DNA of 64,000 nt from Promethearchaeota archaeon (GTDB lineage Archaea; Asgardarchaeota; Lokiarchaeia; Sigyniarchaeales; SOKP01). Shown here in pieces: positions 3,566 through 9,417 of the stretch (position 1 is its first letter; every line of letters starts with the position of its first letter). The stretch spans positions 96,001-160,000 of the forward strand of contig JAGXNO010000001.1 in the NCBI GenBank assembly GCA_019894975.1. The letters are read 5' to 3'. Below the pieces are notes generated by a model. The model saw only the letters and a list, made by a program, of their open reading frames with translations, did no database searches and had not been told where the DNA came from. Position numbers and translations under genes: made by a program.

Positions 3566-4567
3566 ATGGCTAAAGTTATTTTTATTTCCAAAAAAGATGT
3601 CAGAGATGCTTGGTTATCTGCCGTTGGTCAAGTTTTGTATCATGGAGATGATATAAAGACTGAATATGACAAAAAAGAGGATCCTCCTTCTAAGGACGCT
3701 ACGGTATTAATTGAAATTAAAGAACCGTTTAGCAATCCTATTAAGCGTAAAGATAAAATCATGAAGATTAGATCTAAATTCGGAATTTCCTATGAAGTAT
3801 ATGGTTGCATGGCTGATACCTACTTAATTGGTTCTATTCAGAGCGGTTATATTGAAGAAATTATGGAGGGTGTAAATGATCATTTATTACATGACTCCGG
3901 GGTAAGTTTTCCATATTCTTATCATGACAGAATATTTAATTATGCTCCGTATTCTCTTGAGGATTCTATACATATAAATTATGATTTAGAACCTGTTAAT
4001 ACTGATTTTGTAAAATCTCATGAAAAATTATTGAAAGCAGAGAAAATCAGCAGTACAACTGATTCTACTATTTGGAAGCTAAGTAATGGGATTGAATTTG
4101 ATTTAGACAAAACAATCTCAGAGCAAATTGCTGTTGATAAAGTTCCAATTGCTGCATTATTGTTCCCAAGAATCAACCAAATGGAGTATATAATCCAAAA
4201 ATTAAAAGAAACACCATATTCACGCAGAGCACAAGCAATAACTTGGCGTCCATTAGTTGATCCTTATCATGAGGATCCTCCATGTCTTCAGAGGATTTTC
4301 ATGCGAATTAAGGAAGGAAAATTGTTGATGCAAACAACATGGAGGAGTCGTGATCTCTTTCGAGCATGGGAGGCAAACGTAAACGGTATGATACGAATTC
4401 AAAAGAGCATTGCAGATAAATTAAATGTTGAAGTGGGACACTATTTAGATTTCAGCAATTCTCTTCATATCTATGGCAGTACTATTGCAGAAGTTAAGGA
4501 TATGTTCCAGCGCATGAAAGTCAGAGGGGAAGAATTTCCTGAAGAAATTGCTAATTTAATAGAATAA
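3566..4567 (+). CDS. thyA: Thymidylate synthase, archaeal type, with internal insertion
   Basis: YSYHDRI, PYSRRAQAITW, catalytic PPCLQ, WRSRD..AWEAN and SLHIY motifs. Confidence 0.88.
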   Translation: MAKVIFISKKDVRDAWLSAVGQVLYHGDDIKTEYDKKEDPPSKDATVLIEIKEPFSNPIKRKDKIMKIRSKFGISYEVYGCMADTYLIGSIQSGYIEEIMEGVNDHLLHDSGVSFPYSYHDRIFNYAPYSLEDSIHINYDLEPVNTDFVKSHEKLLKAEKISSTTDSTIWKLSNGIEFDLDKTISEQIAVDKVPIAALLFPRINQMEYIIQKLKETPYSRRAQAITWRPLVDPYHEDPPCLQRIFMRIKEGKLLMQTTWRSRDLFRAWEANVNGMIRIQKSIADKLNVEVGHYLDFSNSLHIYGSTIAEVKDMFQRMKVRGEEFPEEIANLIE

Positions 4568-4577
4568 ATCCAATTCA

Positions 4578-5333
4578 TTAGAAGATACGTGGAAAGATTT
4601 CTTTTGTATTCTCATAAAGTTGATTTTCTAATTTATCAATAGGAATATTTTTTAAATTAGATATAGTATCTAAGACATCCTTAATCATTGCAGGAGTTCC
4701 GTCTTTTCCTGAATATTTCACTGGTCCATCACTTTCAAGTAGGAGATGTTCTATATCAACTGTTAATACCGTTTTTTTTACTGCTGGTGAATAGCTAATT
4801 GCTGGGGTAATTGAGAAAAAATAACCTCTATCAATTCCTAAATTTAAAAATTCTTCTGGTCCTGAATACCAATGAACATTAACATTAGGTAAGTTAAAAG
4901 AGGGAAGCATATCAAATATTATTTTTTCGCCCCCTTTTGTATGTAGATTCACAGGTAACTCTAACTCCTGAGCAAGTGTTAACATTTGTTCAAAAATATT
5001 TGTTTGAAGTGGGTATAACTCTTTTTCCTTTACAAAATGATGATCTAAACCAATTTCACCAATTGCACAGATATTATTTCTATTAGCTCTTATTAATTTG
5101 ATAACAGATTCTAATTGATTTTCAATATCTTTATTCATCTTTACTTCTTCAGGATGAATTCCTAAGGCAGGATATATTTCATCGTATCGCTCTGATATTT
5201 CCAATATTCTTCCAATGCTTACAGCACTCATTCCAACTGCAATTATCTTTTCAACCCCTACGTTCTTAGCCTCTATAATGACTTGATCTAGAGCTAAGTA
5301 AAGATTTGCGTGGCAGTGAATATCAATTAGAAT
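4578..5333 (-). CDS. tatD: TatD family deoxyribonuclease (probable ATT start at 5333)
   Basis: GIHP, IGEIGLD, LH, HWYSG and ESDGP motifs. The N-terminal metal motif LIDIHCH lies in frame upstream of the ORF-track ATG at 5231. Confidence 0.9.
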   Translation of the reverse strand: MLIDIHCHANLYLALDQVIIEAKNVGVEKIIAVGMSAVSIGRILEISERYDEIYPALGIHPEEVKMNKDIENQLESVIKLIRANRNNICAIGEIGLDHHFVKEKELYPLQTNIFEQMLTLAQELELPVNLHTKGGEKIIFDMLPSFNLPNVNVHWYSGPEEFLNLGIDRGYFFSITPAISYSPAVKKTVLTVDIEHLLLESDGPVKYSGKDGTPAMIKDVLDTISNLKNIPIDKLENQLYENTKEIFPRIF

Positions 5334-5381
5334 TTTTTACACCTCTAATAAAATAATATAGGAATAAAGAAATATTATAGT

Positions 5382-5720
5382 TTACATGGAATTAATTTGT
5401 TCACGAATGAGAGCGATCTTCTTAACTAATTCAAACTTCTTTCTCCTATTATAATCAGATGAATCTAAATGATCTTGAAGAGTTATTAACTCCTTTAATA
5501 AGTATTTTTTTAAATCTTCTTTAGTGAAATGTCCAATATGCTCTGGGAGAGGTTCAATTTTGGCTGCTCTCTTTATTCTTAAGTCAGAAATTGCTTTCGC
5601 TAGTTGGGCTTGAAAGCCGCTAGCCTTACTTGGATCAATATCTCCCAATGTATCTAAAGAAGTTGTTAATCCATCAATGAAGGCTTCTAAATCTTCTACT
5701 TCAATTGTATCATCAGGCAT
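5382..5720 (-). CDS. Hypothetical alpha-helical protein
   Basis: 112 aa ORF filling an intergenic gap; no recognisable motif. Confidence 0.65.
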   Translation of the reverse strand: MPDDTIEVEDLEAFIDGLTTSLDTLGDIDPSKASGFQAQLAKAISDLRIKRAAKIEPLPEHIGHFTKEDLKKYLLKELITLQDHLDSSDYNRRKKFELVKKIALIREQINSM

Positions 5721-8556: not shown

Positions 8557-9417
8557 ATTCTTATCTCAGAATTCCATAACCTATATAATTCTCGCGGTCT
8601 TTCACCAGAGGTAGTTTCACAATTCCGAAGTATAATTTATGGCTATTATAAACAGCAAGGTAGAAATTTTCCCTTTAGAGAAAATATAACTCCTTATAAT
8701 GTTTTAGTGTCAGAAATCATGTTGCAACAAACTCAGACAGGAAGAGTTTCAGAAAAATTTCTTGCCTTCATTGATAAATTCCCAGATTTTCATGCCTTAT
8801 CAAAAGCTTCACTGGAAGAAGTTCTTAAAACATGGCAAGGTTTAGGTTATAATCGAAGAGCAGTAGCATTAAAAAAAATAGCTGAAAATGTAATTACTGA
8901 TTATAATGGTGTTCTACCAGATTCGATCGAAACATTAAAATCTTTTCCACAGATAGGCCATAATACAGCTTCTTCAATCGTTACATTCGCTTTTAATAGA
9001 CCTACTGTTTTTATTGAAACCAATATAAGAAGAGTATATATCTACTTCTTTTTTCCTGGTAAAATTAGTATAGTCGATAAAACGATCGTTCCAATTTTAG
9101 AGAAAACTATGGATAGCGAAAACCCTCGAAACTGGTATTATGCTTTAATGGATTATGGTGTGATGTTAAAAAAAACCTTTCCTGATTTAAACAAACGAAG
9201 TGCTCACTATCGGAAACAAGCACCCTTTAAAGGTTCTAATCGAGAAATAAGAGGTAAAATATTGAAAATTCTTATAAATAATAAGAATATGAAAAAAAGT
9301 GATCTTCTGAAAGAATTAAAAGATATTAGCCCTGAAAAGCTAACACAGATCCTTAATCGATTAGAGAAAGAGAGTTTCATTAAAAACGAGAGAGGTAACA
9401 TTCAGATTGTTAAGTAA
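8557..9417 (+). CDS. mutY: A/G-specific adenine glycosylase, Fe-S-cluster-less type (probable ATT start at 8557)
   Basis: YY..GRNFPFR...PYNVLVSEIMLQQTQ, WQGLGYNRRA, HhH-like FPQIGHNTA and ETNIRRV. The conserved N-terminal part lies upstream of the ORF-track GTG at 8707. Confidence 0.85.
   Translation: MLISEFHNLYNSRGLSPEVVSQFRSIIYGYYKQQGRNFPFRENITPYNVLVSEIMLQQTQTGRVSEKFLAFIDKFPDFHALSKASLEEVLKTWQGLGYNRRAVALKKIAENVITDYNGVLPDSIETLKSFPQIGHNTASSIVTFAFNRPTVFIETNIRRVYIYFFFPGKISIVDKTIVPILEKTMDSENPRNWYYALMDYGVMLKKTFPDLNKRSAHYRKQAPFKGSNREIRGKILKILINNKNMKKSDLLKELKDISPEKLTQILNRLEKESFIKNERGNIQIVK

Follow-up and report, generated by a model that had tools for sequence, protein, structure and literature searches.

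In Escherichia coli, the genes infC and pcnB are initiated at AUU codons that stand behind a Shine-Dalgarno (SD) site. The Enterococcus faecalis gene ebpA also has an ATT start, which gene finders pass over in favor of a downstream ATG, thereby truncating the protein (PMC4447247). With regard to archaea, ribosome profiling in Haloferax placed approximately 30% of putative alternative start sites at near-cognate codons, which were set aside (PMC7261190), and a review notes that SD sites are not widespread in the Lokiarchaeon that has been cultured (PMC7531240). Here, we report a comparative analysis of a tatD-family gene located in a 64,000-nucleotide (nt) stretch of DNA (the window; positions 96,001 to 160,000 of the forward strand of contig JAGXNO010000001.1, assembly GCA_019894975.1) from a Promethearchaeota archaeon, the genome of which is referred to as G000. 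An original prediction had proposed that this gene starts at ATT 5333, or at an adjacent near-cognate codon, and the orthologs, the selection acting on the gene, and the genome-wide spacing of start codons described below support this proposal; we consider it very probable that the gene is intact and functional and that its translation begins at AUU (ATT 5333-5331).

The tatD reading frame and its leader

On the minus strand, the leader and the first codons of tatD read GAG GTG TAA AAA ATT CTA ATT GAT ATT CAC TGC CAC, which corresponds to (I/M)LIDIHCH; every element of this layout was recovered where the original prediction had placed it (Table 1). The in-frame TAA is separated from the ATT by a single AAA codon (5336-5334), and no in-frame ATG, GTG, or TTG lies between this TAA and the conserved N-terminus, the first such codon being the ATG of residue 35. 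The distance from the GGT of the ribosome-binding site to the ATT is 7 nt, while ATG starts found behind [AG]AGGT elsewhere in this genome (G+C content, 31.6%) peak at 6-9 nt, such that the position of the stop codon, the lack of an earlier canonical start, and the normal SD distance all agree with what had been predicted. A feature that had gone unmentioned is the GTG at 5342-5340, which is part of the SD site and in frame with tatD. No internal stop codons or frameshifts were found in the 251 codons of the tatD frame.

No 16S rRNA gene was found in G000, G005, or G002, and the 16S rRNA 3' end was hence taken from G022, a genome of the same genus, where it reads ...GGATCACCTCC(A) (also given as GAUCACCUCC). 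As this 3' end carries CACCUC, six base pairs with GAGGUG are possible, and the spacing to the ATT is like that of canonical starts in the same genome. Pairing of these two elements would place the AUU, 6-7 nt downstream, in the ribosomal P site, where, judging from what is known about SD-led initiation, Met-tRNAi would accept AUU with a third-position mismatch, yielding a product that begins with (M)LIDIHCH; the TAA would then be harmless, as it would fall within the untranslated spacer. The predicted N-terminal tryptic peptide of a protein initiated at this ATT is (M)LIDIHCHANLYLALDQVIIEAK.

The protein encoded from the ATT onward matches PF01026 (TatD_DNase) with an E value of 2e-54 and a score of 185 bits (cut-off, 27 bits), with residues 3-247 covering profile positions 1-252 of 253; since profile position 1 falls on residue 3, the whole TatD domain lies behind the TAA. 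Alignment with solved TatD proteins begins at residue 2, where LIDIHCH is matched by LVDCHCH of human TATDN3 (2y1h), and the H6-C-H8 metal-ligand motif is present and aligned with the HCH of the same structure, in agreement with the TatD-like N-terminus noted in the original prediction. Solved relatives (2y1h, 2gzx, YcfH [6l25], YjjV [1zzm], and 1j6o) resemble the tatD product in showing a full-length match and in carrying the HxH motif 6-8 residues from the N-terminus. Because the score against TIGR00010 (YchF/TatD family DNA exonuclease) was 177.2 bits and thus below the cut-off of 206 bits, the product was assigned at the Pfam family level only; it is a full-length TatD-family metal-dependent hydrolase with predicted activity.

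Table 1. Coordinates of the tatD start region and of neighboring genes (positions within the window)
Feature	Position	Strand	Remarks
SD site GAGGTG	5340-5345	-	Six-base complement of the 16S rRNA 3' end; AGGT core kept in nearly all orthologs
GTG within the ribosome-binding site	5340-5342	-	Rival start codon, unusable here; in frame with tatD, directly followed by TAA
In-frame TAA	5337-5339	-	Two codons 5' of the ATT, in the spacer between site and start; TAT in the nearest relatives (L033, L035)
ATT, most likely start codon (AUU)	5331-5333	-	Aligned with ATG/GTG of orthologs; NCBI model begins here with M
CAC TGC CAC, HxH metal-ligand motif	5310-5318	-	Residues 6-8; both His invariant in 65/65 aligned orthologs
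TatD-family hydrolase coding sequence	4578-5333	-	251 codons plus stop TAA (4580-4578); PF01026; purifying selection
ATG of residue 35	5229-5231	-	Internal Met; first in-frame ATG/GTG/TTG; start of 217-aa public model
Thymidylate-synthase-like gene	3566-4567	+	333 aa; PF00303, partial match (4e-14)
Open reading frame (ORF) upstream of tatD	5382-5720	-	112 aa; no Pfam match

Orthologs, recurrence of the swap, and selection

A search of 54 genomes of the genus identified tatD in 48, among them G000, and alignment of the 5' ends, a check that had been suggested in the original prediction, showed that the codon at the start position is ATG in 36, GTG in 2, ATT in 7, and ATC, ATA, and ACG in 1 ortholog each. 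The ATT of G000 thus aligns exactly with an ATG or GTG in 38 of the 48 orthologs. Nearly all of the 48 have an AGGT core at an equal distance from this codon. ATG is not universal among these orthologs; the eight closest species, including G000, form a clade with 100% bootstrap support in which seven carry ATT and one carries ATC, while the sister pair of this clade carries ATG. Pairwise synonymous distances (dS) within the clade range from 0.3 to 1.4, which shows that the ATT/ATC state is old. A wider scan of species genomes identified ATG in 40, ATT in 15, GTG in 6, and ATC, ATA, and ACG in 1 each, and a pattern scan yielded 19 metagenome contigs with ATT, ATA, or ATC (ATH) at this codon. 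On a joint single-gene tree, on which any count of independent ATG-to-ATH events hinges, ATH forms occupy at least five separate places (topology only), indicating that the swap from ATG to ATT or ATA arose several times independently in tatD among these relatives. The ribosome-binding site reads AGGTG or AGGTGAT in most ATT lineages and AGGTT in most ATG lineages; this association, which is no more than an association, fits a stronger site compensating for a weak start. Frequent toggling of the tatD start might reflect that low expression of the nuclease is tolerated or favored, or might represent near-neutral drift under lenient start selection.

ATG has also been lost in L021 (genome G014), which carries ACG, and in L050 (genome G054), which carries ATA, representing two further independent losses; in both, an in-frame TTG is located two codons 5' of the start position and only 1 nt after GAGGT, and either the TTG or the ACG/ATA could be the codon in use. 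The genomes of this single GTDB genus have been deposited under the names Promethearchaeota, Hodarchaeota, Hermodarchaeota, and Odinarchaeota, and some of these depositor phylum labels are probably wrong; relatives deposited as Promethearchaeota, in line with the affiliation assumed in the original prediction, include the isolates Loki_b31 and Loki_b32.

Selection was assessed through ratios of non-synonymous to synonymous distances (dN/dS) calculated from Nei-Gojobori distances between pairs of sequences and from three-point estimates for branches; the Nei-Gojobori counts do not correct for the biased base composition of this AT-rich genome. Between L001 and L059, which share the leader gtg TAA aaa ATT, 13 non-synonymous and 17 synonymous changes were counted (594 and 156 sites, respectively), while about 24 and 6 changes would be expected under neutrality (binomial p=1.8e-5; dN/dS 0.19). 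As this divergence was constrained, selection on the protein continued after the TAA arose. The terminal branch leading to G000 showed a dN/dS of 0.05-0.14, as compared to 0.07-0.22 for its sisters. Neither this sister-like terminal-branch dN/dS nor the uninterrupted frame points to a pseudogene; the original prediction had named relaxed selection in this copy as an observation that would speak against it, and none was detected. The ATH codon and the open frame behind it are thus kept under selection (dN/dS, 0.05-0.2) in eight species as well as in further metagenome contigs.

The neighborhood of tatD includes a convergent thymidylate-synthase-like gene, the stop codon of which is only 10 nt away from that of tatD, and a gene for a PEMT/ICMT-like membrane methyltransferase. 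The ORF upstream of tatD shares the tatD reading frame; it ends 48 nt (16 codons) 5' of the ATT and 42 nt, comprising 14 open codons, before the TAA.

Alternative readings of the tatD start

Several points weigh against initiation at the AUU. To our knowledge, AUU initiation has been experimentally demonstrated in no archaeon, and the whole case for it in tatD is built on sequence comparison. Every species-level genome with ATT also carries an in-frame GTG three codons 5', at which initiation may take place in those genomes, and, even though ATT 5333 is favored, the neighboring CTA 5330 and ATT 5327 are possible starts. Finally, a review of archaeal translation names only AUG, GUG, and UUG as start codons (PMC7531240), and discrimination against starts of the non-canonical kind has been ascribed to aIF1 (PMC6237735).

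The GTG three codons 5' of the ATT is in frame in all eight members of the clade as well as in all ATT-bearing species genomes, and it is open in seven of the eight clade members, with sense codons (TAT AAA, CTA AAT, GTA AAT, TTA AAC, GAA CCA, and GAA CCT) between GTG and ATT in the seven sister species. A shift of the start to this GTG (M-x-x-I-L-I-D) within the clade is therefore conceivable; the ATT would then be left as an internal Ile codon, and G000, where the nearest relatives read TAT in place of the TAA, would have suffered a TAT-to-TAA nonsense mutation at codon 2 of a dead or dying gene. The in-frame TTG two codons 5' of the lost ATG in L021 and L050 would also be in keeping with such a shift. 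We nevertheless reject this explanation as improbable. The GTG belongs to the AGGTG block that is kept in most ATT lineages, while any base (G, A, C, or T) may precede it and the following six positions are variable, and no ribosome-binding site was found 5' of the GTG. Furthermore, at least six intact sequences from several lineages lack this GTG or cannot use it: the separate metagenome contigs L059 and L063 share the leader gtg TAA aaa ATT; in L071, the leader is gtg att TAA ATT; L074, the spacer of which is 1 nt longer, has the GTG out of frame and a TGA in frame; L065 reads TGA ATA; L068/L060 have GAGGTT, with no start codon following the upstream TAA; and GAGGTA replaces GAGGTG in L075. 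When compared to their nearest relatives, the GTG-disabled ATT/ATA sequences showed dN/dS values of 0.08-0.22. Among about 40 ATG-type orthologs, about 5 also have stop codons at the two spacer positions, which would be expected for untranslated sequence. A dead or dying gene is further at odds with the purifying selection under which the TAA-bearing lineages L001 and L059 diverged, and with a G000 branch on which dN/dS is no higher than on those of its sisters.

Initiation at CTA 5330 or ATT 5327 instead of ATT 5333 appears similarly unlikely. Local scanning by archaeal pre-initiation complexes, in the vicinity of the position that the ribosome-binding site dictates, has been described (PMC6237735), and a start at ATT 5327 would retain D-I-H-C-H. 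ATT 5333, however, is at the exact position of the ATG or GTG of the orthologs, 7 nt from the site, whereas ATT 5327 is 13 nt from it and thus beyond the 6-9 nt peak of this genome.

An even smaller likelihood is assigned to the possibility that the true product is the 217-aa protein that begins at ATG 5231, i.e., a TatD protein that lacks the N-terminal beta-strand and the HxH motif. While this ATG is the first canonical start and a 217-aa model is present in Logan/ENA gene calls, codons 2-34, which would be lost with a start at Met35, are under strong purifying selection (dN/dS of 0.02-0.09 in pairs that include G000) and contain His6 and His8, which do not vary in any of the 65 aligned orthologs; by contrast, residue 35 itself is I or L in 4 of these 65. 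The Pfam profile and the solved TatD structures, moreover, align from residue 2 or 3 onward.

Although the TAA falls within a run of six A's and is one base away from the TAT of the relatives, an error of sequencing or assembly, or a variant private to one sample, can for practical purposes be dismissed, since positions 5331-5342 are identical in contigs of four runs (X1, X4, X5, and X6) from four studies and since the separate metagenome contigs L059 and L063 read alike. The original prediction had named an assembly error among the findings that would speak against an AUU start, and both TAA and ATT were unchanged when checked on these contigs, the word depths of which were 30, 10, 4.8, and 3.7; the comparison, which covered permafrost, subsurface, and soil samples among others, was made at the level of Logan contigs, from which rare variants may escape. 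None of the runs listed as containing this stretch is recorded as RNA. Two of the four runs are possible sources of the assembly itself and therefore do not count as independent; run X5, on the other hand, represents a variant strain with three single-nucleotide differences near the tatD start and unchanged TAA and ATT.

Two further candidates were rejected. Read-through from the upstream 112-aa ORF would require two stops to be bypassed, and a start-stop at GTG TAA followed by re-initiation is unnecessary and sterically at odds with the location of the GTG inside the paired ribosome-binding site.

Start selection beyond tatD and comparison with described systems

A scan of G000 anchored on [AG]AGGT recorded, by spacing, the triplets at the head of ORFs of 100 codons or more, provided that a stop lay upstream of them before any canonical start and that no canonical start followed within the next 20 codons. 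ATG peaked at 6-9 nt after the GGT across the genome. ATT, ATA, and ATC combined were found 32 times at 6-9 nt versus 38 times at 13 control offsets, while the other 55 codons were found 80 times at 6-9 nt versus 299 times at the control offsets and showed no peak, corresponding to an enrichment of ATH at start spacing with an odds ratio of 3.1 (Fisher p=3.6e-5). In several of the ATH candidates, an N-terminal P-loop or Rossmann motif follows the ATH codon directly, and a stop lies 0-8 codons upstream. We lean, if only slightly, toward the view that this Promethearchaeota (Loki-type) lineage is lenient throughout in its choice of start codons. ATT, ATA, or ATC behind a good site would then be routine starts in several per cent of its genes, with free interchange between ATG and ATT during evolution; on this view, tatD would represent at least five independent swaps, often with a change from AGGTT to AGGTG as compensation.

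Examples of candidate ATT/ATA starts include C109:+109248, C120:-38977, C126:-1441, C142:+275, and C107:-15284, which are located 8-9 nt behind AGGT(G) (6-9 nt for the whole list), with a stop 1-7 codons 5' and a P-loop or Rossmann motif next. The aIF1/SUI1 gene of G000, which lies outside the window (L142:1393-1500; G000:C104, about 8786-8893), has an in-frame TGA TAA followed by GAG AGT ATT AAA GAC, which leads into a zinc knuckle (CPLC...CICD), and no ATG, GTG, or TTG occurs until far into the domain. Because no canonical start precedes the zinc knuckle, aIF1, a start-codon proofreading factor, also seems to need a non-canonical start.

Public models of tatD comprise 217 aa from ATG 5231 in Logan and ENA and 251 aa beginning with MLIDIHCH at NCBI. 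Since the NCBI protein record begins with M-L-I-D and has 251 aa, the NCBI annotation already uses the ATT; the start call itself is hence not new, while the comparative evidence and the recurrence of the swap are. Our search of the literature, which was incomplete in coverage and may have missed existing reports, found none on ATT, ATA, or ATC starts in Asgard archaea. Gene finders limited to ATG, GTG, and TTG cut the metal-binding N-terminus off this enzyme, and other genes of these Asgard genomes would suffer from the same truncation problem. Routine use of AUU, AUA, and AUC near the eukaryotic stem would, if true, bear on the evolution of start-codon stringency (aIF1/eIF1), and tatD provides a natural series of leader variants with ATG, GTG, ATT, ATC, ATA, and ACG at one codon and with an upstream GTG that is either usable or disabled.

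Like the bacterial genes infC, pcnB, and ebpA, tatD appears to combine a near-cognate AUU at normal spacing from the ribosome-binding site with the unavailability of a canonical start. It differs from them in that its host is an Asgard archaeon with eukaryotic-type initiation machinery (aIF1, aIF1A, and aIF2), in that a TatD hydrolase offers no evident basis for autoregulation, and in that ATG has been replaced by ATT or ATA repeatedly within one family, usually together with a change from AGGTT to AGGTG. With regard to archaea, start usage described so far comprises SD-led initiation with local selection of the start codon as well as hints of near-cognate starts, as is proposed here for tatD. 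In contrast to the near-cognate sites seen by ribosome profiling in Haloferax, the near-cognate codon of tatD would, on comparative evidence, be the only possible start of a conserved full-length enzyme that is maintained by selection.
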